A stretch of DNA of 64,000 nucleotides from Mobula hypostoma (taxonomy: Eukaryota), in assembly GCF_963921235.1 (NCBI RefSeq), contig NC_086097.1, positions 23,500,001 through 23,564,000 of the forward strand. The letters run 5' to 3'. Numbering within the stretch: the first letter of the stretch is position 1; every line of letters begins with the position of its first letter. Shown piece after piece: positions 3,421 through 64,000 of the stretch. The notes below the pieces were generated by a model. The model made no database searches, was not told the origin of the DNA, and saw nothing but the letters and a program-made list of their open reading frames with translations. Both the position numbers and the translations under genes were made by a program.

Positions 3421-3974
3421 TTCCATCATAGGTTAATTGGTCACATGGGTATAATGGGGTGATTCTGGCTGGGGCGAGAAAGGTCTGTTACCATGCTGTA
3501 CCTCTAAATTAAAACTAAATTAAAACGGAATAGATAAATGCACATCTGGTGGTCGCTGTGAAAATACATCTGGGGATATTTCTTCAAAATCTGCAATAAC
3601 TGCATAGAGCTGTTGAAATCATTAACAACAAAAACTGATAACACATACAATTAGCTTTAAGTTCTATTCCCTGTTATTTTAATTGCATCAATTTTAATGT
3701 TAAGTCTGCATAATCAGGTTTAGACTTTAAATAGCAAATTATTTTAACAGGGTAATACATGCATCACCTCTTCACATTGCTACCATCAAAGAGGTGGTGC
3801 AGGAGCCTAAAGACACATACACTCAATACTCTGAGTACAGTTTCTTTCTCTTCACCATCAGATGTCTGAATGGGCAATATGCCCATGAACACTACCTCAC
3901 TATTTTTTATGCTCTCTTTTTTCATTATAATGTATTACACTGTACTGCTGCCACAAAACAACATATTTCATTAC

Positions 3975-4215
3975 AACACACACAAAATGCTGGAGGAACT
4001 CAGCAGGTCAGGGAGCTTCGATGAAAAAGAGTAAGCGGTTGATGTTTCGGACTGAGACCATTTTTCAGGAAGAAGTGTCCTGAAGAAGGGTCTTGGCCTG
4101 AAACATCAAGCGTTCACTCTTTTCCAATGATGCTGCCTGACCCGCTGAGTTCCTCGAATCTTTTTATGTGTGTTGCTTTGGATTTCCAGCATCTGTAGAC
4201 TTTCTTGTGTTTGAA
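3975..4215. mobile_element. Inverted pair of Penelope terminal units, each with a decayed hammerhead
   Basis: About 3975-4070 (minus) is the approximate reverse complement of about 4078-4175 (plus). The plus copy has CTGAAGA AGGG TCTTGG CCT GAAA CATC. Confidence 0.8.
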
Positions 4216-4613
4216 ATTTTACGACATACACAGTGATATTAAACCTGATTCTAATTCTGATCTTTAAATCACATGAAGCTATCTCAATTCTCATTGTCCA
4301 GAGCAAGAAGAACCTTGTTACTTAACCCCATCTCTTAGATTGTTTCTTGCACTGTTTGAGAGAGGACTTTTTCCATATCCATAGGCCCATCCATGTCCCA
4401 GTTTTAATCTTTCTTTGCTGGAGCGCATTTTCATAGATACCAAAGAAATTTTGAAATCCCGTGCAAATGAAGACATCCTTGGTTACTTAAACGGTAGATC
4501 TATTTTCAACTTCGGATCACTTGAAGACTGGTTATAAATGGGAATGCAGTATTACTATTGTAGGATATACTGTAAAGAATTTCTCCAAAGGAAAGACCTG
4601 TGTTTTAGTAATA

Positions 4614-18778: not shown

Positions 18779-18898
18779 GTCCTAGCACAACTTGCCAAGA
18801 AGACTCCTGTACCAACTATGGAATCTGCATCCAACAGTGGGAAGGATACACATGTGACTGCTCCATGACTTCATACAGCGGCAGTCAATGCAACGACC
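18779..18898 (+). CDS. nrxn3: Neurexin alpha exon encoding the third EGF-like domain
   Basis: ctaAG|GTCCTAGC...AACGACC|GTgagt, 120 nt, phase 1-1. Translates [40 protein letters not shown](P) with six EGF cysteines. WEG, SYSG and QCND are closer to NRXN3 than to NRXN1 or NRXN2. Confidence 0.95.
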
Positions 18899-23221: not shown

Positions 23222-24639
23222 ATCTAAGCTCACTTTGACACCTTAGTATATATAAGAATTGGGATCCCACGTGGGAGGTGAGTTGAATCAAACTTCAATT
23301 ACCAGACCTCTCGCATCCTTGGTCACATCCAATGACCGCACGTATTCATGTACCCCAAGCAATATTTACTGTTATCTCTGCTTGAGGTCAAATCAGCAAA
23401 GCTGCAGCTTATCTGAGGAATTAGATAAGCAGAGTGCTGTTTTACTATTTTTTTCTGCATTAAAATCTTTCTGAGGTTTATGCGTATCTGACAGTGGAAG
23501 GAATAAGCTTGAAAGGTTGTACACCTTATTGAAGCAAGGGTTTATGCCATCTCACGAATAATATAAGGATTTCCATATAATGCAAGATGGGTTTTTAAAA
23601 AAATATGCTGTGAAATGGAAATAGTGTTGATGGCCACCATTATGTTGGCTTTGACTCTGACTTATAATATGGTTTACGGTATAATATCTGATGAATTTTT
23701 AAAATGTCTAGTTAAGGGGAAAATAATGTTGAACCCACCCATACATTGGCTTTGGACACTCTCCCACTCTCTTGCCCCTTTGAAGTTGAAATGAAGGATC
23801 ATTCTGGCAGGAGAACTTTGCAAAATTGAGGCACCAACAGACTCAGAGATCCCATATGCCCTTCAAGACTCTGAATGCATATTTAAATTGAAGTAAGTAG
23901 TGTAACGAGAATGCGGAATACCATATTTTCTACTTTTTTGTTAAATCTTTGTAAAAATGTGTCTTAACCTGCTATGTTTGACATGTTACATAGTCCCTCC
24001 AAGATAAAATGAGGATTGACACTAGGAATGGAATGGGATGTTCCTAGGATAATCTAACAGCCTCTCGTGTGCATCACTCACCAGCTGGGCATTTGTGACA
24101 AGACTCTTCATTCAAAATATCTGTACAATGTCCGCATTAGGAAAATAGATATATTCTTCAAACTTCTTTTTTCATTTTAAATACATTTTCATTATCAAAC
24201 CTAAACACTTGTATGTTCTGTAGTGGCCTTGTTTCTAATGGGGCTCAGATTAAATGGAGTTATCCTGGGAGATGGGTTGCTCCCTTCACTTTTCAGAAAG
24301 AGCTAAAGGAAACATTTATCTTTCTCCTAAATGGATGGCTGTGGCTGGACTTCTTCAGCTTCCTTACCTGCCTTCTGCTCTGAGGTGCTCTGTGCTATCA
24401 AACTATGAGAGGATAGGGATGCGGAAGGTAATTTTAACATTTAGCCAAGGAAGTCCTGAGTTCTCACTGGCATTAGCATCTAAGTACTTGTCTCTCAGAT
24501 TCAGATTCAGTTTTAGTTTTTTTGTCGTATTGATTGGTTGTCCATTGTATCTGTCAGTGACAGTAAGAAATCTGTGTGGGAAGGTTTTTAAAGTGGAAAA
24601 CCTATGACACTGGGATAGTTTTACTCTCTCGAACTCAGA

Positions 24640-32869: not shown

Positions 32870-33665
32870 TCCTTTTCTTTTTCCATTCTCCTCTCCTACC
32901 AGTCACCTCCCTTTCTTCCCCCTCCACCTTCCCTTTCTTCCCCCTCCACCTTCCCTTTCTTCCCTCTCCACCTTCCTTCTCCCCTCTCCACCTTCCCTTC
33001 TCCCCCTCCACCTTCCCTTCTCCCCCCTCCACCTTCCCTTTCTTCCCCCTTCACCTTCCTTCTCCCTCTCCACCTTCCCTTTCTTCCCCTCCACCTTCCC
33101 TTTCTCCCCTATCCACCTTCCTTTTCTCCCCTCTCCACCTTCCTTTTCTCCCGCTCCACCTTCCCCTTCTCCCCCTCCACCTTCCTTTTCTCCCCCCTCC
33201 ACCTTCCCTTTCTCCCCCCTCCACCTTCCCTTTCTCCCCCTCCACCTTCCCTTTCCTCCCGCTCCACCTTCCCTTTCTCCCCTCCACCTTCCCTTTCTTC
33301 CCCCTTCACCTTCCCTTTCTCCCCTCCACCTTCCCTTTCTCCCCTCTCCACCTTCCCTTTCTTTCATGGCCCACTGCCTTTCCTATTAGATTCTTTCTTC
33401 TTTAGCCCTTTACCTTCCACTTTTCTATGCTAACTTCTCTCTTCATCCCCCCCCCCACTTTCCCCCACTCACACACCTTCCTCCTCACCTTGTCTCACCT
33501 ATCACCTGCCATCTTGCATTCCTTCGCCATTCTCCATACTTCTCTGGTTTCTGCCCCCTTCCTTCCCTGTCCTGAAGAAGGGTCTCAACCTGAAAAGTTG
33601 ACAGTTTATTCCCCTCCACAGATGCTAAGTGACTTGTAGACTTCCTCCTGAAGTTTGTGTGTGTT
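32870..33665 (+). mobile_element. Penelope-like 3' UTR and terminal unit hosting the minisatellite
   Basis: After the array: catggcccac..tcctattagattc..., then tgtc CTGAAGA AGGG TCTCAA CCT GAAA AGTT gaca. Confidence 0.75.
32905..33365. repeat. Almost pure C/T minisatellite, unit about 20-23 bp (ccaccttccctttctcccct)
   Basis: About 20 imperfect tandem units, embedded in a Penelope 3' UTR. Confidence 0.9.
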
Positions 33666-36297: not shown

Positions 36298-38834
36298 GAT
36301 GCTGATGCTGAACAATACTAGATGCTAACCAATTAATAGCACCAGCCATAGTTGATACCCTGTGCTCTGTGAGCACTGGTATCAAATTTCAATGGCCCTT
36401 GAATCTGTTCTATTACTTTTTATCAATCCTAGTAGTTCAGTTGCTGATAAAAGTTGTGTAAGCAGATTTTTAATTCCTAGTTCATAATAAAACTCTGTAG
36501 TACAGCACCCCCTAATACCCATCAACTAACTCTGTGAACTTGTTAACCCTAACTTTCCAGCCACTCCTCATAGTAGAATGATTCACACCATCTTTCCTGT
36601 AAACTCCCAATGAATTTATTAATCCTAACCTCTTTAATTCCCACAGTAAACCTGTTAACCCAAAGCTCCCAATAAACCCCCAGTGAAACCATTAACCCAA
36701 TGCCTCCGGAAAATAAACACACACTCTTAAAAACATGAACCTGTGCCGGCTGTGTAGGTTTGCTGTGATCTAAAGCACTGTAACTCCTATTGAGAGCCAC
36801 TCACCCTCTCTCTGTGTAAACTCTCACCAATAAACCCAGTAAGCTCTACATGGGGAGAATTTACTGCAACATATAAAATCCTCAGAGGCATGAAAGAGTC
36901 GATGCTGAGATGATTTTCACAAGTGGGATAGTCTTGAACAAGTGGACGTTCAACTGCAGCATGGAAGTGTAGCAGTTAGCATAACACTATTACAGTGCTA
37001 TCGTTTCAAAATTAGGCACGTACGATATTTATCTCACAGAGGGTGGTGAATCACTGGAATTATCTACCCTCTAGGCCCTGAGTCATAGAGACCGAGTCAC
37101 TAGAGGTATTTAAAGAGGAACAAGACACACTTTTGAAAAATCAAGGATTGAAGGCTGTGTGAACATGGCACCGAAGAGATTTGGCCAATGATGAATAAAT
37201 CATGACCATATTGAATGAAGAGGTTACAGCTTTTAGGCTCCTGAACCAGCAGAGATAACTTCATTCCCCACAACTCTGAACTGATTCAGTCAAGGACTCT
37301 TAACAACTCATGTTGTCAGTAGTACTTTCACTTGTGCATTTTTTCTTAATTAGCATGTTGGTCTGTTGTCAGTCATCGTCTGTTTTTCCATAAAATTTTA
37401 TTGTATTTTTTTCTTGTAAAATTCCTGCAAGAAAATAAATCTGAAGGTACTATTAGGTTTTATTGGAGATATATATAGATAATAAATGTTCCTTGAACTT
37501 TGTACATTTGGACTTTGAGGCTTTTTTGAGGCCTACTCCTGCTCCTGTTTTCTTGTGTTCTCTCCTCCCTGTAAGCACTCACCAAAATCCACTGAGCTGA
37601 GTCAACTTTTTTTTTCAAGTGCAATATTACCTCATCTTTTGTAGTAGATTCTAACATTTTTCCTATTACTGCTGTAGGTCTGTCTTGCCCATAGTCATTT
37701 ACACACCCTATTTCATCTCCTTCCAAATTCCATCCATGGGTACACAGAACGCTGTGGAGCCCATTAATGAAATACAGTAGTACACAAGAGACCCAGAGAT
37801 GAAATCCCCAAAGATTGGTGATCCATAGAAAAGATTCAAAGCCACCATTTTGCTCTCTAATTCTCATGGTCTCAAATGATTTCTACACTCTATTCCGAAA
37901 TCCTGGTTTCTGAATTGTCAAACAAAAGAGCAAGAGCAAATCTGCAGATGCTGGAAATCTAAGCAACACACACAAAATGTTGGAGAACACTTTGTCAGGG
38001 TCTTGGTCTAAAGTGTAGACTGTACTCTTTTCCATAGATGCTGCCTAGCCTGTTGAGTTCCTCCAGCATTTTGTGTGTGCTTTCTGAATTGTCACATTGT
38101 CACATCTCATAACTCAGCCTTAAGTTCTGTTGAAATACACTATTCCAAATCACTTTCAGAAGTTTTACTTCGTTAAAGACGTGCTCGAGGGTATAGTTTA
38201 CTAAATGGCATCTTAATCAGTTGTGTTTGTGTAAATAAATGCCATCTGATTATAGGCTTTGCACTGTCGTAATTCTGCATTGAGCGTGACCCTGCAGATC
38301 ACAGAAAATAAGGAAGTAGTTAGAGTTCCGGAAGTAACTAAGATTAGTGAAAAAAAATGGTGTCTGAGGAAATAGTGTGACTGAAAGTGAATAAAACTAA
38401 GGAGAAGGGGAACTTTATCCCAAGATTTAAAAGGTGTGTCATTTGAGATGATGAATGACCGGCTGTCAAGTTCAAATTCACAAAATCATTGAAGGCTACA
38501 GCAAGGAAGAGGGCAATTCGGCCCAGTGGATCTGTGCTGGCTCTGTGCAACTGATATGCAGCTAAGGCCAACTTCAATGCCCTTGTCCCACAGCAGTATA
38601 AATGTTTTTTGTTATCAAGTTACTTGTGATAAGAGTTGTTTTTTTTAATGTACGGTAGCCATTGATACAGCTTCCACTACTTCCACTGGCACTGTGTTTC
38701 AGATCCAAGCAGCTCATTGCATGACAAAGCATTTCCTCATGTTACTTGTGATACTTCTGTTCCTCTTTGCCATTGGAAACAACTTATCTCCATTTACCTT
38801 GCACGGTTTGAAGTACTACTATCAGGGCAACTGT

Positions 38835-41310: not shown

Positions 41311-44046
41311 TGCTGCTGTACACAAAACACAGAATATTACAGCACAGGAAAGTCCTGAACATACCAGACTTTAATACTTCTCATATGAGAAGATATTGAT
41401 GAGTTATTGCCTTAAACTACCGTATGAGCACTGTATCTAGATCTGACTGCTGCAGTCACAAGGGACAGGATCAAACCTTACTGAGTTTGCAGAAGTGTTG
41501 CAAGATGCTCCTAAATGTGAAAATTAATTTCCAGAATAGAACATAGAATATTACAGCACGGTGCAGGTCTTTCGGTATATGATACCGTGTTGACCTTTGA
41601 ATCTATTCTAAGATCAATCTAACATTTCCTTCCCACATAGGTCTCCATTTTTCTATCACCCATGTGTCTAAGAGTCTCTTAAATTACCCTAAATATTAGC
41701 CTCTACTGCTACCCTGGCAATGTGTTCCATGTACTTACCACTCTCTGTATAAAAAACCTACCTCTGACGATTATTTCCCCTGGTGCTGATCATTTCCACC
41801 CTAGGAAAAAGTCTCTGGCTATCCACTCAATCTCTGCCTCTTATCATCTTGTACACCTATAACTAGTTGCCTCTCATCTTCCTTCACTCCAAAGAGAGAA
41901 GCCCTAGCTTGATCGACTTATGCTAAATTTTGGTGTTTCACATACGAGGGAGTACTGTGACATGCTGTATTTTGAACCTATTTAAATGATAATGACATTT
42001 TCATTCTCCCTTCCAAAGTGAATAATATCACTTTTCCACGTAATCCTCCATCTGTCATCTTTTCACCCATTCGTCTTTTCCACCTATAATCCAAGTTTCT
42101 TTGTAACCTCCTCATCTATCTTGCTAACCTTCCTGCCTTTGTCTTTCCATTGTACTGAAACATAAGTGGCCAATACAATTGGAGGACGATTGTGCTGTTG
42201 TATTTGGCATCTGACCTCACAGACCACAGTCTTCTGTACAGGTATCACAACAGTACATTAGATATGGTTAGAAATGCTGATGTGGTTTTAGCAGATCTCT
42301 TGCATCACCCATCGTTGATCCGGCTGAGTGCCTTAGAGCATATTTTATATCACGAAGCATCTTGACTAAAATTATATGAGTTTCTTAATGCAGTTTTTCA
42401 AATAAAATGATTCCACAATTGGCTCTGAGCCATGTAATTTGTTTTTATCAAGCTTTGTGGGTTAAATGAATTCCTCTTAAGAAGGAATAAATTTTAGAAC
42501 CAGATGTGTGAATGGATTTTTATGTCTAAGCCAGCAAACAAACTTTGTGAAAAAGGTCAGGTGAGAGTCCATTAACTCTCACATCCGTGAAGTCCTGGTA
42601 AACCTCAATTCTCAAGGTAGTATATAGTGACATAAACATAATTTGATAATAAATTTACTTTGAACTTTAAACCTATTAACTCTGTCCTCTCTGTAAATCT
42701 TCACTGTGATTGCCAAGAGATCAATGGTGGAGCTGGCGGAAGCTGACGGCACATCACTTTCTGAAGGTAGGGGACGGTTGCCAAGGTGAAGGGTCCCCAG
42801 TCGTCTTGCATTCCATGCCTCTGGACCCCGATCCCCATCTGTCAAGGACAGTGTGGTGGCTGCCCCGTGCATCAGTGTTCCCAGGTTATACAAAGTCACG
42901 TATTGGTGTTCTCCATTCAGGGGAACCCCCCCTTGAGAGAACATTATAGTTGACTCGAGTGATCGCAGTACTACTGTGATTCCATTAACCCCCAATTAAC
43001 ACATTTTAACCCTTATCACCCTGTAAATATTTCCAGTGATTTCATTGACTATAACTCATAAATGGCCAGTGAACCAATTAACATCCCTGAAACTCACTAA
43101 TGTTAGACTCTTCTAAGTTTGCAATATAACTGATTTTCTAGAAAAAATGCTCACAGCAAACCCTTTAGCCATTATCTTCTGACAACTGGAACTCTAAATC
43201 CATGAAACTTCCTTCTGTACTAGTCCCTAACTATGACTCATGATTCTATCATTGAATCAAATGTTAAGGAGAGGCAGAGTTTGTGTCGGAATGAACTGCA
43301 ATGGAACAATTGTCTTTTTTCTGATCCATACCTTCTCAAATCACTTAGATCAAGGGATATGGAGTTGAGGTAGATCAGGAATGACTATTGTGGCAAAGCA
43401 AGATAAAGGCGCACTATGAACTACCCCTAGAATGTAGGACATGGATCAGTACAGTATAGGACCTTTGGCCTGTGATGTTGTGCCGACATTTTGACCTGTT
43501 CCACGAACAATCTAACCCTTCCTCCTCCACAGCCCATAGCCCTCCGTTTTTCTCTCATCCATGAACCTATCTAGCAGTCTCTTAAACGTCCGTATTGTAC
43601 CCATGATCCATTATCTTTGGTTTCTATTGAGCAGGTTTTGCAAAGCCATCAAACCCCCTGAAGGAAATGGTATTACAAAACCAGGTTTATTATCACTGAT
43701 ATATGACTTGAAATTTGTAGTTTGTGCAGCAGTACAGTGAAATAAATAAAAAGTCTATACAAAATTAAACAAGTTAAAGAAGAGAGCAAAATTATGAGGT
43801 AGTGTTCAAAGATTCATGGACTATTCAGAAATCTGATGGCAGAGGAGGAGAAGGTGTTCCTAAAATGTTGACTTTGACTATGATTCTTCAGGTTCCTGTA
43901 TCTCTTCCTTGATGGTATGTGAAGTGGGCATGTGAGGGTCCTTCTTGATGGATGCCATCTTCCAGAGGCATTGCCTTTTGAAGATGTCCTCAATGGTGGG
44001 GGCAAATATTTTGTACCTTTTTATTAGAAGTGGGGTCCTTTGTGTT

Positions 44047-44851: not shown

Positions 44852-46849
44852 GTACTTGACAGTTCATGTTATTAGTTACTGGCAATATGAGCCCTTACTA
44901 ATTATTTCTTTGTTCAGTACACACTAGTTCATTTATAGCACTTCAAATCCTTATCTATCTCCTGAATATTAAAGAGGAACTTTGATTTATATATAGCATC
45001 TTTAATGACCTCAGCACTGTCCCAAAGCACCCCACAGCCAGTGATTTGCTTTTGGGCTGAAGTCAACCGTTAGAAATTAGGGAAAAACAGTAGTCAATTA
45101 GTGTCCAGTAGACTCCCTCCGAGGGCATTGGTAGAATGATGAAATCATTTTTTTTTTATCACTTTATTCTGATGGATGTTTGCGAATATGCTGTGGATAG
45201 CTCCTTTTTTTTTTCAAAACTCCATCTTGGACTCTTGTATCCATCTGAGCAGGTGTAATATCTTATTTGTCTCCCGTAACTCACACAATTCAGAGGTATT
45301 TCTGCCCCCAAAACAGTTCACTGAGTTTTATTGCTCTCATCAGTTGGTGAATCAGGTTCTTTTATCAGGAATTTTTTCTGACCAGCTCTATGCTATCAGT
45401 GAGCCCCATTCATTTGAGTAGCAGGATCTTTATTTTCTATTAATATCAAATGCATTTAATGACAGATAAAACTCCTCAGTCTTACAATCATGAAATCATA
45501 TCACACAATTAGATTGATCCGAACAGTGCGTCCTTTTTATCCAGTGGAAGATATCACCACTCGAGGATGCCTTAATGTAATAAGATCGGTGTCAAAAGGA
45601 AGCAGTGGATATTTTCCAAATAGGCAGCTGCAAGCATGGTTTAAAGACAGAAGGAAATTTGTCTCTTGGTCTGATTTGTTCCATTCCATATTGAGCATTA
45701 TTCTGCAAATGTGATTATATTTGAATGAGAATAGAATAGAATCAACATTGCTTCTATGAAAAAAAACAGCAGGATACATTTAAGCAGATCTTCTTCAAGG
45801 AATTTAAAGTTTCTGACCATCCATACCTCCAGTCTCCTATTGAGGACTAGCCAATGGACCTCTGGTTTCTTCCTCCTGTCATCAATGATCAATTGCTGAT
45901 AGTGAGTGAGAGGTGGTTGCGGATAACTTCATTCACTTCAAATCTGAACTGATCTCACAACCAGTGGATTCACTTTCAAGAACTCCTGTTCTCAGTATTT
46001 TATATTCATCCATCTATCTAGTTATTTATCTATATATTCATTCATTCATTTGTTTATTTGATTATATATTATTTTTTGTATTTGCACACGTTGTCTTCTG
46101 TTGCACATTGGTTGTTTGTCAGTTTTTGTGTGGAGTTTTTTCATTGATTCCATTGTATTTATTTGATTTATGAATGCCTGCAAGAAAATTAATCTCAAGG
46201 TAGTATATGGTGACATATACGTACTTTGATAATACAGTTTTTGAACTTTGTTAATGAAAATGTAAGTCATATCCCATTTACTGGTGATTTTCCCAATGAC
46301 TTTATTCAGCAAGGTCACATCCTGTGGTGAAAATTCTACCTTACCTTCAGCAAGATTAAACCACCCATTCTGGAGGTGTTAAGCATACCTTTAGCTGCAA
46401 AAGGAACAATCTCTTTCATTCACTTCCACACCTCCCCACAGTGAGCCTCCATCATCGTATGTTCTTAAAGGTCTTCCCCTAATGTGAAAAGATGACCGTG
46501 ACCATGAGCTCTTTCTTCCAGTGAACTTGTGTCAACAGAATTGTTTGACATTCCATGAACACTACATCTAACTGTTCTTGGAGGAACAGGAGACAGCACA
46601 TGCTGGAACATGCTTGAGGAACTCAACAGATCAAGTAGCATCTGTGGGGAGGTGGAAAGGAGAAGGAATTATTGACAATTCAGATCAAAACCCTCATCAG
46701 GGCCACATATTCTGAATTGAAGGGAGGTTCTAACTGTAACCAGGGCACTTGAAAGTTATCAAAGAAAATGCCCACAGTTGCTTTTCACACCCCAAAACCC
46801 AATGTTGCTTGACCTACTGACTTCATCCAGCAGTTTGATTTGTTTTAAG

Positions 46850-47070: not shown

Positions 47071-47144
47071 GGAAAGCAAAATAGTTACTTTTCACCAGTA
47101 AATGAAAGTCAAAGAAATGAAATAGAAATCTGAGATGTAGAGGA

Positions 47145-48124
47145 TCTCACTTCTGTACGTCCTCTCGTCATCACCTGAGATTCTACCAACAATGGTTGTA
47201 TCGTCAGCAAATTTATGGATGGTAATTGAACTATGCCTAGCCACACCGTCATCTGTATATAGAGAGTAGAGCAGTGGGCTAAGCACACACCCCTGATGTG
47301 CGCCAGTGTTGATTGTCAGCGAGGAGGACATGTTACCACCAATCCTCACAGACTGTGGTCTTCCGGTTAGGAAGTCGAGGATCCAATTGCAGAGGGAGGT
47401 ACAGAGGCCCAGGTTCTGCAACTTCTCAATCAGGATTGTGGGAATGATGGTATTAAATGCTGAGCTATAGTCGATGAACAGCATCCTGACATAGGTGTTC
47501 GTATTGTCTAGATGGTCTAAAGCCGTGTGGAGAGCCATTGAGATTGCATCTGCCATTAACCTATTGTAGTGATAGTCAAACTGCAGTGGGTCCAGGTCCT
47601 TGCTGAGGCAGGAGTTCAGTCTAGTCATGACCTACCTCTCAAAGCATTTCATCACTGTCGATGTGAGTGCTACCGGGCAATAGTCATTAAGACAGCTCAC
47701 ATTATTCTTTTTAGGCACTGGTATAATTGTTACCTTTTTGAAGCAAGTGGGAACTTCTGCCCATAGCAGTGAGAGGTTGAATATGTCCTTGAATACTCCC
47801 GCTAGTTGGTTGTCACAGGTTTTCAGAGCCTTAACTGGTACTCCATCGGGACCTTCCACCTTGCGAGGGCTCACTCTCTTTAAAGACAGCCTCACACCAG
47901 CCTCTGAGACAGAGATCACAGGGTCATCAGGTGCAGCAGGGATCTTCACAGCTGTAGTTGTGTTCTCCCTTTCAAAGCGGGGATAGAAGGCAATGAGTTA
48001 ATCTGGTAGTGAAGCATCACTGCCATTCATGCTATTGGGTTTCACTTTGTAGGAAGTAACATCTTGCAGACCCTACTAGAATTGCTGTGCATCTGATGTC
48101 ACCTCCAACCTCATTCGAAATTGT
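47145..48124 (-). mobile_element. Rex1/Babar LINE reverse transcriptase fragment
   Basis: [56 protein letters not shown] and KFADDTT motifs, with an in-frame stop. Confidence 0.92.
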
Positions 48125-59682: not shown

Positions 59683-60235
59683 CGTTCAGTGGTCAGTTTA
59701 TTAGGTACACTTGTACTCACTATTGCCAATATCTAATTGGCTAATCATGTGGCAGTAGCGCAATACATGCAGATATGGTCATGACGTTCAGTTGTTCTTT
59801 GGACCAAACAACACACTGGAGAAGAAATGCAATCTAAATAACTTTAACCGTGGAATGATAGTTGGTGTCACACAGGGTGGTTTGAGTATCTCAGAATTTG
59901 CTGATCTTCTGTGATTTTCATGCACAGTCCTCTCCAGAGATGGGAATGATGCAAAAAAAACAAACAAACAAAAAAAAAATTCAGTGAGTGGCAGTTCCGT
60001 GGGCAAAAATGCCTTGTTAATGAGAGAGGTCAGAGGAGGATGGCCAGGCTGTTTCAAGCTGCCAGGAAGATGGTTGTAATTCAAATAACCACGTGTTAAA
60101 ACAGTGGTGTGCAGAAGGGCATCTCTGAATGCACGACACGTCGAAACTTAAAGTGGATGGGCCACAGCAGCAAAGGGCAAGAGCCACAAAACATATGTAC
60201 ACTCAGTGGAAATACCGAATAAAGTGGCCACAGAA
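59683..60235 (+). mobile_element. Tc1-derived non-autonomous element
   Basis: cagtggtcagtttattaggtacac...aataaagtggccac. Encodes SEWQFRGQKCLVNERGQRRMARL (Tc1 DNA-binding-domain remnant). Confidence 0.8.
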
Positions 60236-60701
60236 TGTAAGTAAGCAGCGTCGAGGGCAAGATCAGATCACCTTTTGAATGTAGAACAGACTCAGAGGGC
60301 CAGCTGAACTACACTTGCTTCTTGTGTTTATTCTAACTTGCAGAACATGTCAGCTTCTTTATTCATTTTTTCCTTAAATGACATGTCTGCCATTCCCAGA
60401 ATCAATCTTATGAACCTCATTTGCATTTGTTCTCAGTCAAGCATAAACTAACCTGAAGGAGATCAAAACTACCCTCAGTTTTTCAGTGGTGCTTTCAGCA
60501 ACACTGCATGCAATTACAGAGGGACTTCTTATTCCAAACTTCTGCTATAAAGGCCAACATACCATTTATGTCTATCATTGTCTTCTGTTAGCTCCTGTAA
60601 TTTGTGTTTCAAGTTACCAAAATACTTTTATCCTTTTAATACTTTTTTTTCCACTACAGAATCAGAATCAGGTTTATTATCACTGAGATATATGTTGAAA
60701 T

Positions 60702-61537
60702 CTCTCCCCACTGATCTCCCTCCCGGCACTTATCCGTGTAAGCGGAACAAGTGCTACACATGCCCTTACACTTCCTCCCTCACCACCATTCAGGGCCCCA
60801 AACAGTCCTTCCAGGTGAGGCATCACTTCACCTGTGTGTCGACTGGGGTGATATACTGCGTCCGGTGCTCCCGATGTGGCCTTTTATATATTGGTGAGAC
60901 CCGACACAGACTGGGAGACCGCTTTGCTGAACATCTACGCTCTGTCCGCCAGAGAAAGCAGGATCTCCCAGTGGCCACACATTTTAATTCCACATCCCAT
61001 TCCCATTCTGACATGTCTATCCACGGCCTCCTCTACTGTAAAGATGAAGCCACACTCAGGTTGGAGGAACAACACCTTATATTCCGTCTGGGTAGCCTCC
61101 AACCTGATGGCATGAACATCGATTTCTCTAACTTCCGCTAATGCCCCACCTCCCCCTCGTACCCCATCTGTTACTCATTTTTATGCACACATTCTTTCTC
61201 TCACTCTCCTTTTTCTCCCTCTGTCCCTCTAAATATACCTCTTGCCCATCCTCTGGGTCACCGCCCCCCACTGTCTTTCTTCCTGGACCTCTTGTCCCAT
61301 GATCCTCTCGTATCCCCTTTTGCCTATCACCTCTCCAGCTCTCGGCTCTATCCCTCCCCCTCCTGTCTTCTCCTATCATTTTGCATCTCCCCCTCCCCCT
61401 CCAACCTTCAAATCCCTTACTCACTCTTCCTTCAGTTAGTCCTGACGAAGGGTCTCGGCCTGAAACGTCGACTGCACCTCTTCCTACAGATGCTGCTTGG
61501 CCTGCTGCGTTCACCAGCAACTTTGATGTATGTTGTT
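60702..61537 (+). mobile_element. 5'-truncated Penelope-like (Neptune-type) retroelement with 13-bp TSD
   Basis: Direct repeat tatatgttgaaat at 60689-60701 and 61538-61550. Uninterrupted ORF to TAA at 61141 with Cys-rich linker CKRNKCYTC and GIY-YIG motifs (VIYC...LYIGET.HRL.DRF.EH...EEQHLI...GMN), then a pyrimidine-rich UTR and hammerhead. Confidence 0.93.
61438..61473 (+). ncRNA. Minimal type-I hammerhead ribozyme in the Penelope terminal unit
   Basis: AGTC (stem I) CTGACGA AGG-gtctcgg-CCT (stem II) GAAA CG TC / GACT (stem I'). Catalytic core intact, GUC cleavage triplet at 61467-61469, stem III is the palindrome ACGT (dimer-dependent form). Confidence 0.8.
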
Positions 61538-61616
61538 TATATGTTGAAATATGTAGTTTTGTGACACCAGCACAGTACCATCCATAAAACTTTACTATAA
61601 GTTGCAATAAATAATA

Positions 61617-62060
61617 TACACTCAGTGGCCACTTTATTTGGTACAGGGGATACCTAATAAAGTGGCCACTGAGTGTATTTCTGTATGGTCATTGTCTTCT
61701 GTTACTGCAGCCCATCCTCATCAGGGTTTGATGTGCTGTGTGATCCGAGATGCTCTTTTGCATATCACTGTCATAATGCATGGCTATTTGAGTTACTGTC
61801 ACCTTGAACCAGTCTGACCATTCTCCTCTGACACGAGGAAATCTGCAGATGCTGGAATTTCAAGCAACACACATAAAAGTTGCTGGTGAACGCAGCAGAC
61901 CAGGCAGCATCTATAGGAAGAGGTACAGTCAACGTTTCGGGTCGAGACTGTACCTCTTCCTATAGATGCTACCTGGCCTGCTGCATTCACCAGCAACTTT
62001 TATGTGTGATTTTCCTCTGACCTGGTGTTTCCGTCCAAAAAACTGCCATTTACTAGATTT
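61617..62060 (-). mobile_element. Tc1-derived element (partial) interrupted by a Penelope foldback
   Basis: Local palindrome tacactcagtggccacttta...taaagtggccactgagtgta. Insertion at about 61831-62008. Confidence 0.75.
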
Positions 62061-62067
62061 TTTTTTG

Positions 62068-62621
62068 TTTATAAGACCTTGATCAGACCCCACTTGGAGT
62101 ATTGTGCTCAGTTCTGGTCACCTCACTACAGGAAGGATGTGGATACTGTAGAGAGAGTGCAGAGGAGATTTACAAGGATGTTACCTGGACTGGAGAGTAG
62201 ATTCAGTGTACTTGGCCTTTTCTTCTTTGAGCAACAGAAGGATGAGAGATGACCTGATAGAGGTGTATAAGATGATGAGGGGCATTGATCGTCTGGATAG
62301 CCAGAGGCTTTTTCCCAGGGCTGAAATGACTAACACAAGGGGGCATAGTTTTAAGGTGCCTGGAAATAGGTACTGAGGGGATGTCAGGGGTAAGTTCTTC
62401 AAACAGAGAGTGGTGGTGCATGGAATGCACAGCCGGTGACGGTGGTGGAAGCGGATACAATAGGATCTTGTAAGAGCCTCTTAGATAGGTACATGGAGCT
62501 TCTAAAAATAGAGGGCTATGCATAAGGCAATCATAGGCAGTCTCATGAGTAGGTTACGTGGTCAGCACGACCTTGTGGGCTGAGGGACCTGTAATGTGCT
62601 GTAAGTTTCTATGTTCTATGT
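62068..62621 (+). mobile_element. CR1 3' fragment
   Basis: YKTLIRPHLEYCAQFWSPHYRKDVDTVERVQRRFTRMLPGLE, tail ttctatg. Confidence 0.9.
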
Positions 62622-64000
62622 CAGGGGTCCCCAACCATTTTTGCGCCGCGGACCATTTTAATATTGACAATATTCTTGTGGACCAGCCGACCGGTGTTGG
62701 GGGGGGGACGTGTTTTGTTAATCACAACCGGAATATAGGTGATAAGTCAACTATAAGTCACTTATCAGTGGCTAATACCTTCAAGTTTGTTCTAAAATGG
62801 TTTGTCTAACAAATTTAATATTAAACACACAGCGCATATTTTCCTCGCATGAATATAGTGATATGTCAAATATAAGTCACAAGGGAATTCCTTATGTCCA
62901 GTCTATCCTACAATTTAGTTTTCGTTGCATTTATTGCAGAAAACTCCAGTTCGCAGAGGTACGATGTTGGAAATGGAAGCAATGTTTTCAGTGCTTTTGT
63001 GGCTATCTCATGATATTCAGCCTTGGTTTTGATCCAGAATGCCAGCAGAGATGTTATGTCAAACATACTTTTCAGCTCACTGTCATTTGCAAGCTTGAGG
63101 AGTTGATCTTCTTCCCGCGCTGACATGGATGATTCAGCGGGGACATTCACAAATAGGTCACGGACCCATTCCTTTGCACGTCTTGGGTCATGTGCGGTTG
63201 GGAAGTAACGCTCCAATTCTGTTGACAGCGAAGATAGGTGATCGCGCACCAGCTGTGAGCCTCAGTCTTTCCCAAATTCCCAGCTAATGTTGGGAACATG
63301 TCAAATATGCCCCTGTCCACTTGCCGTCCCCACAGTTCCAGTTTGGCTGTGAAAGCAGGCACTTCATCTGCCAACTTGAAGACGGTTGTCATTCTCCCCT
63401 GAAGTGACAAATTGAGTTCATTGAGCAGGTTGAAGATGTCACACAGATAAGCGAGTTTTGCTATCCACTCCTCGTCACTGAAGTGTGCTGCCAGTGGTGA
63501 CTTTTTTCCTGAAAGAAATCTCTGTAGCTGCTCTCTTAACTCAAAAACCCTGGCCAGGGCTCTCCCCTTTGACAGCCACCTGACTTCAGTGTGTAAAAGA
63601 AGGCGTTTGTGCTCTGCATCCATTTCCTCGCACAGCTGCTCAAACAGACGTGAGTTCAGGGCTTTTGCTTTGATGTGATTGATAACTTCAACAACGTCAC
63701 TCAATACGCTGTCAAGATCAGATGACATTTTTCGGCTAGCCAGCATTTCCCTGTGTGTGACACAGTGTGTAGACTGGCATTCAGGAGCAACCTCTTTGAC
63801 TCGGGGAGTGAAACCAAACTCGTCAAGCCGTTCCAACAGCTGTGCTTCGATGTCCTCCGCTATGTCATCAATTCTCCTTCAGACTGTGGTAGCTGAAAGA
63901 GAAACCTGTGCCATCTTGTTAGCTGCAACTTCTCCCAACAGTTCACAGCACATGTCCTTGGCAGTAGGCAGAATCAATTCTTCACCAACAGTGAAAGGCT
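62622..64000 (-). mobile_element. hAT Buster/Charlie-type transposon (ZBED5/SCAND3-like transposase pseudogene), runs off the window end
   Basis: TIR CAGGGGTCCCCAACC at 62622 preceded by ttcTAtgt. Motifs HCVTHREMLA, LLLHTEVRWLSKG, LAYLCDIF and LLPFPTSYLCE..FS. Frameshift near 63250 and an in-frame stop near 63880. Confidence 0.93.

Follow-up and report, generated by a model that had tools for sequence, protein, structure and literature searches.

The closest systems described so far are the minimal hammerhead ribozymes (min-HHRs) of metazoan Penelope-like elements, a class described in 2014. Such variants reportedly cleave as dimers, to judge by the title of a 2017 study by Lunse et al. The metazoan min-HHR consensus is a type I motif with CUGANGA, one unpaired base, a helix II that is opened by G and closes on C, and then GAAA; positions 15.2-16.2 are palindromic, loop III is missing and stem I is short (PMC4209133). 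They occupy the pseudo-LTR, chiefly as solitary motifs in copies that are truncated. The monomer did not cleave; dimers and trimers cleaved at a low level (PMC4209133).

Several related systems bear on the comparison. Elements of the Neptune clade combine a C-terminal GIY-YIG endonuclease, with a CxxC from the CCHH cysteines that lies between GIY and YIG, a CX2-5CxxC linker upstream, between reverse transcriptase and endonuclease, and a hammerhead in the pseudo-LTR (PMC8557442). The clade, delimited by phylogeny, also has a telomerase-like reverse transcriptase further upstream in a single ORF. The vertebrate Poseidon element PAc of Anolis carolinensis carries stems I and II near the end of its pseudo-LTR, followed by a tail, and uses an AT-rich target; its motif showed no cleavage without the element protein, and RNA-seq reads that end at the site were not observed (PMC11167929). 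Type I hammerheads are also found in sense orientation in vertebrate introns, namely those of RECK, CTCL/C10orf118 and DTNB in amniotes (PMC6155905, PMC3088659). Non-LTR retrozymes, which are non-coding tandem repeats, contain type I motifs from Penelope pseudo-LTRs, with one chondrichthyan genome reported (bioRxiv 10.64898/2026.07.22.740005). Among the literature matches listed, none dealt with hammerheads of rays or of neurexin introns.

The hammerhead motif

The window, the whole stretch of 64 kb of Mobula hypostoma DNA that was analysed, contains one such motif with the following parts.

61438..61473, + strand: minimal type I hammerhead, recognized by the consensus of PMC4209133, the copy alignment and a descriptor scan
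61438-61441 with 61470-61473, + strand: stem I, AGUC/GACU, four Watson-Crick pairs
61442-61448, + strand: core positions C3 to A9
61450-61453 with 61458-61461, + strand: stem II, GGGU/GCCU around CUCG, opened by a G·U pair
61462-61465, + strand: core positions G12 to A15.1
61465-61468, + strand: palindrome ACGU, with no loop III
61468 and 61469, + strand: U16.1 and C17

The predicted scissile bond is 61469/61470, and stem I could be extended by a fifth pair, U·G. The preliminary description had presented this motif as an intact hammerhead with a complete core, a 4-bp stem I and a loop-less palindromic ACGU. All three components are confirmed: the core has no deviation at any of the 12 scored positions of the copy alignment, and stem I and the palindrome are read from the sequence. 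The word intact fits the core and does not extend to the consensus G10.1-C11.1 pair.

Apart from the C that closes helix II, the ray motif shares the features of the metazoan min-HHRs listed above, including its place in a pseudo-LTR, and matches five of six Penelope min-HHR sequence features, missing the consensus C11.1. It differs from the published consensus by U for C at 11.1, where G10.1-C11.1 is a consensus of more than 80% and not invariant. Its stem II, with 4 bp, is close to the lower limit of the lengths published, and its host is a ray, whereas cartilaginous fish appear in none of the 44 alignment rows examined (PMC4209133). The motif is an ordinary added member of the class.

A generic descriptor, independent of the family and requiring the core, a stem II of at least 3 bp and a stem I of at least 4 bp, finds three loci in the window (23688, 33572 and 61442), where 100 dinucleotide shuffles gave 0.01 on average and never more than 1; the motif is therefore not a product of chance. 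The locus at 23688 was rejected as a family member, being AT-rich, outside the family and probably fortuitous. A pattern composed from the copies gives six matches with at most three mismatches versus 0.00 expected, a result that is circular for the 61438 copy itself and yet demonstrates a repeat family. The hammerhead scan suggested in the preliminary description recovers the motif with a generic descriptor and not with Rfam. The latter gave no match over the window at the gathering threshold, and up to E 10 its 26 matches in 60400-62200 included no hammerhead family, being mostly miRNA-type models on inverted repeats. Positions 61438-61473 are a real, nearly complete minimal hammerhead of the Penelope type.

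A pyrimidine tract with CAG/TAG (61420-61440) runs up to stem I's 5' strand, an arrangement reminiscent of the intron of D. virilis Penelope, whose 3' end is at helix I (PMC4209133). Outside the window, a pattern scan of viral contigs gave 0 matches, and metagenome contigs yielded two near-identical loci of a different family, with no blastn similarity to the window. The hammerhead-like motifs on the metagenome contigs L001 (1045-1090) and L002 (about 100-150, - strand) have the same stem II start, with G10.1-C11.1 and one additional A behind GAAA; none of the six ORFs of L001 is evidently a Penelope ORF.

The host element and its family

The motif sits in a truncated mobile element, whose parts and borders are as follows.

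60657..60701, + strand: left half of an older short repeat, split by the element
60689..60701, + strand: left 13-bp target site duplication
60702..61537, + strand: 5'-truncated Penelope-like element, recognized by its endonuclease ORF, pseudo-LTR and target site duplication
60702..61141, + strand: truncated ORF with a CX4CxxC linker and a GIY-YIG endonuclease (PF01541, E 7.4e-05), stop at 61139-61141
61142..61437, + strand: pyrimidine-rich pseudo-LTR / 3' UTR, from the sequence and from depth at family level in sequencing run X1
61474..61537, + strand: element tail 3' of the ribozyme
61538..61550, + strand: right 13-bp target site duplication, from which the host repeat continues

The hammerhead lies in the pseudo-LTR, about 300 nt past the GIY-YIG stop and within the target site duplication. 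This confirms the earlier placement of the motif at the 3' end of a duplication-flanked Penelope copy, as both the truncated endonuclease ORF and the duplication are directly observed. The left and right flanks are contiguous on an uninterrupted repeat copy at 43676-43751, so the 13 bp genuinely arose by duplication of the target. One X1 contig crosses the right junction (61513-61638) with 0 differences and at about single-copy depth. An empty-site joint was not found among the 15 of 1181 joints listed, and neither a filled nor an empty insertion site was seen in a second organism (B) among the matches listed.

The translated ORF has a CxxC that lies between GIY and YIG. Together with the C-terminal position of the endonuclease, the linker and the hammerhead in the pseudo-LTR, this resembles the Neptune clade, although the copy has no reverse transcriptase (PMC8557442). 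The element fits the Neptune type, as an assignment by linker motif and domain order rather than by a tree. Its best protein relatives are P0001 of Mobula hypostoma (137 of 146 amino acids identical) and proteins of Hypanus sabinus, and the relatives P0001-P0007 reach upstream into sequence resembling reverse transcriptase. The endonuclease region also occurs in ray gene models (P0003, P0004, P0009, P0027 and P0032) that bear the names mucin-2, divergent protein kinase domain 1C, receptor-transporting protein 3-like, chitinase domain-containing protein 1 and NYAP1-like, either by annotation capture or by exonisation. In other copies of the family, a GT-like site lies where the ORF stops. A joint from 61128 to 61438 (side 28) was considered as a spliced form and discarded, being too weak and present in DNA runs too.

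Like PAc, the ray element carries a vertebrate Penelope motif with both stems near the pseudo-LTR end, a following tail and an AT-rich target. It belongs to another clade, and the PAc assays included that element's own protein; the truncated ray copy cannot supply one (PMC11167929). Unlike the tandem units of non-LTR retrozymes, it has a single pseudo-LTR together with an endonuclease ORF (bioRxiv 10.64898/2026.07.22.740005). Retrozyme identity was consequently rejected, given a single motif after an ORF and no tandem unit.

Two rounds of nhmmer give 19 pseudo-LTR matches in the 64 kb, a locally high copy number, with 11 on the + strand and 8 on the - strand and hence no visible purge of sense copies. 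Sixteen of the window copies were aligned with one outside motif (L001); the matches at 46801, 51083 and 61934, which are tail or mirror arm only, were left out. The whole core is kept in three of the 16 aligned window copies (4076, 33568 and 61438), and the 61438 copy is the only one of them to combine it with both stems and ACGU. The sense copy at 33568-33603 has a complete core and both stems, with AAGU instead of the palindrome. Across the 17 sequences, 82% of the stem II cells are paired, and every slid control does worse than the structure. In this small and decayed set, the paired fraction was reached by 163 of 500 shuffles and the covariation score by 273 of 500, so that neither rises above shuffles; the covariation across copies that the preliminary description asked for is not seen in this set.

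In run X1, 248,280 contigs fall on a stretch of 1351 bases, and the summed depth is 9.4 million over the motif versus 20-78 on the unique flank, a figure that is not a copy number. The element family is very abundant. The preliminary description had called this copy young. It is the best-preserved one in the window, which agrees with that reading, but it differs from the X1 family majority at 19 of the 27 element positions listed (at least 2% of the element), making it fairly, not very, young. Over 87 nt, its nearest sister matches it at 89%.

Two independent insertions of Penelope origin (3930-4260 and 60657-61590) split copies of one short host repeat at almost the same AT-rich place, which hints, from two cases only, at a target preference. 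MITE-like insertions that consist of short, inverted pseudo-LTR tail pairs lie at about 61833-62008, with an antisense sister of the motif copy inside, and at about 3971-4213. The former has its own 13-bp duplication (61820-61832 / 62009-62021), and its host repeat is uninterrupted near 59971-60068.

Stem II register and probable CpG decay

The earlier statement that stem II starts with an A-U pair does not hold. A61449 is the unpaired extra base of the family, in accordance with the single unpaired base of the metazoan consensus, and the first pair, 10.1-11.1, is G·U. All 15 aligned window copies that cover this position have A. The G·U register, GGGU/GCCU, is preferred to the A-U register in folding energy (-2.3 versus -1.1 kcal/mol) and in pair probability (0.67 versus 0.12), and the rejected A-U register is also weaker in the family, with 68% of stem II cells paired versus the 82% given above.

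The dinucleotides at 11.1/12 in the 16 aligned window copies are CG in four, TG in seven, CA in four and TA in one, with no others, and position 11.1 is C in eight copies and T in eight. Such a pattern is expected if a CpG of the ancestor was deaminated; what the family has at 11.1 is judged here from the window copies. The G·U at 10.1-11.1 is thus likely to derive from a G-C pair by CpG decay, with C11.1 changing to U. Two further CpGs, at 15.2/16.2 and 17/1.1, are both kept in the 61438 copy and have decayed likewise in other copies; the antisense sister at 61862..61948 keeps CG at 11.1/12.

A G·U pair at 10.1-11.1 is found in six of 44 published representative motifs (PMC4209133 supplement), so it is a sign of decay and neither a proof of inactivity nor a reason to exclude the motif from the class. 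This pair is the most conserved one after 15.1-16.1, and U-U at the same place can still support cleavage (PMC3088659). No published rate for cleavage with G10.1·U11.1 was found in the literature searched.

Folding, cleavage and the neurexin-3 transcript

The host gene is identified by one exon of the window.

18779..18898, + strand: neurexin-3 alpha exon, third EGF repeat, bounded by AG...GT (neurexin-1 alpha 1015-1054, E 5.7e-24)

The exon is 100% identical to neurexin 3a of Mobula, Hemitrygon and Pristis, and 75-80% identical to neurexin-1. It fixes the sense strand as +, and the hammerhead, 42.5 kb downstream, is sense to neurexin-3. A tblastn search with 13 of the 120 neurexin 3a proteins listed revealed no second neurexin exon in the window. 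The next exon is then outside, and the motif is placed in an intron by inference. Of the earlier claim of a motif sense to a neurexin intron, the orientation stands on direct observation, while the intron is deduced from a single exon. The same intron would also hold the beta promoter, as in vertebrate neurexins.

Folding predictions for the transcript involve two further features.

61423..61453, + strand: predicted competing hairpin that would cover the ribozyme's 5' half by pairing CUGA..GAAGGGU with pyrimidines upstream
61862..61948, - strand: antisense sister copy, from stem II onward plus tail, 323 nt downstream and 89% complementary to 61452-61538

The isolated 36-mer is predicted to fold into an inactive rod, with G5-G8 paired to 15.2-17 at a probability of 0.96-0.98. 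Once the model includes at least 18 upstream bases, stems I and II have probabilities of no more than 0.04, since the pyrimidines at 61423-61433 pair with the 5' half. This hairpin was rejected as a designed switch, since 37 of 100 shuffled upstream flanks mask the motif equally and the masking is therefore largely compositional. The lowest-energy structure of 61400-62020 has the motif's 3' half, from 61452 onward, paired with the antisense copy; at -266.2 kcal/mol this is 13.6 kcal/mol better than the -252.6 kcal/mol obtained when the antisense copy's own hairpin is forced.

A homodimer of the motif can form all 20 double-hammerhead pairs, at -9.5 kcal/mol versus -20.0 kcal/mol for two monomers and -28.3 kcal/mol for the best misfolded dimer. 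Heterodimers with six sense copies of the window reach -2.6 to +3.5 kcal/mol, and none of them is a sound partner; the set does not include the sense copy at 37986, which deviates at six core positions. Nearest-neighbour folding ignores tertiary contacts of the core, proteins and co-transcriptional kinetics, and the dimer energies have no active hammerhead as a positive control. The energies accordingly count against activity and do not exclude it. The preliminary description had proposed that the pre-mRNA could self-cleave through pairing with another copy. The lack of a sound partner among the six, and the predicted masking of the core in its context, speak against this as a likely event, and cleavage of neurexin-3 pre-mRNA by the motif appears unlikely, both on these models and from the weak or protein-dependent activity published for such motifs. 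Moreover, introns cut by a hammerhead were still spliced, while a fast HDV ribozyme blocked splicing (PMC2995048), so that even a cut need not matter.

The motif is very probably a Penelope min-HHR in a 3' pseudo-LTR that now rides as a silent passenger in the presumed neurexin-3 intron. Target-primed reverse transcription would have placed the element at an AT-rich point of the older repeat. The motif would serve the element itself, probably when tandem transcripts of the element are processed with the aid of protein or of dimer formation, and may then have decayed neutrally, including the change of C11.1 to U at a CpG. Once transcribed within the intron, it would lack a stem III, a sound partner and any element protein encoded by its own copy; folding predicts that the flanks mask it, and it would leave with the spliced-out intron and be degraded uncut. 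The complete core, in the best-preserved copy of the window, counts against this account and suits occasional cutting in vivo, in which the motif acts as the substrate half with an intact copy in trans, or is aided by the protein of an active element. Such cutting would be harmless, with the exons still spliced. It is also favoured by the ACGU palindrome, by the homodimer that accommodates all its pairs and by the protein-assisted cleavage of the Anolis motif (PMC11167929). The family is very abundant, so that intact partners in trans probably exist, and it is present in two runs guessed to be RNA, one of them flagged as probably DNA; these are contigs, with none on the unique left flank, and are silent on ends, strand and level. 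The dimer energies, the masking flanks predicted by folding and the missing cleavage ends in Anolis RNA-seq (PMC11167929) weigh against such cutting, which is judged improbable. In its boldest form, the protein or intact transcripts of the element would complete a double hammerhead in trans and cut neurexin-3 alpha pre-mRNA at 61469/61470, within the long intron that follows the third EGF exon, which is highly improbable. Were it true, intronic copies would amount to a transposon-triggered, genome-wide system of pre-mRNA cutting in rays, and host cleavage triggered in trans or by protein would open a new route from transposon activity to altered neuronal gene processing.

Two readings would give the host a larger part. 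Co-option, with regulated self-cleavage that shortens the neurexin-3 alpha pre-mRNA and shifts isoform output, could draw on the sense orientation of the motif 3' of a neurexin-3 exon and on the precedent of the RECK, CTCL and DTNB introns (PMC6155905). Those precedents, however, show conservation among amniotes and look like canonical type I hammerheads (PMC6155905), and the human C10orf118 hammerhead cleaves robustly in vitro (PMC3088659). The ray motif, in contrast, is minimal, has no helix III, is predicted not to be a self-sufficient fold as a monomer and is still inside a transposon, a lineage-specific repeat with decaying siblings on both strands, and it has lost C11.1; co-option is thus exceedingly unlikely. 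Just as little credence is given to a host effect without catalysis, either through an 87-bp duplex with the antisense copy, as a possible editing substrate, or through a cryptic, frameshifting exon at about 61436/61440-61527. The predicted pairing of the 3' half of the motif with the antisense copy is consistent with the duplex, although similar inverted pairs exist elsewhere in the window. The pyrimidine tract with CAG/TAG 5' of the motif and a GT site at 61528 would suit the exon, but 53 pseudo-exons satisfy the same crude rule in 18950-63900, the rule fails on the true acceptor at 18779, and the 13 neurexin 3a protein models examined contribute no second exon from the window.

As a silent passenger, the motif matters little, being one more copy of a class described in 2014, in a genome rich in such copies. 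It has a modest value as a test substrate, a near-complete vertebrate motif of Neptune type with a natural G·U variant, and it could help to address the in vivo role of Penelope hammerheads.

Other repeats were observed in the window. A small inverted-repeat element with 28-bp arms at 61614-61680 is high-copy in sequencing runs and scores 60 bits with Rfam mir-9256, below the cut-off of 80. An open frame of 243 amino acids at 63147-63878 (- strand), with no Pfam match at E 0.01, resembles, on inspection by eye, a remnant of a hAT-type transposase. Finally, a LINE-type reverse transcriptase remnant lies at 47092-47997 on the - strand (RVT_1, E 1.2e-18).
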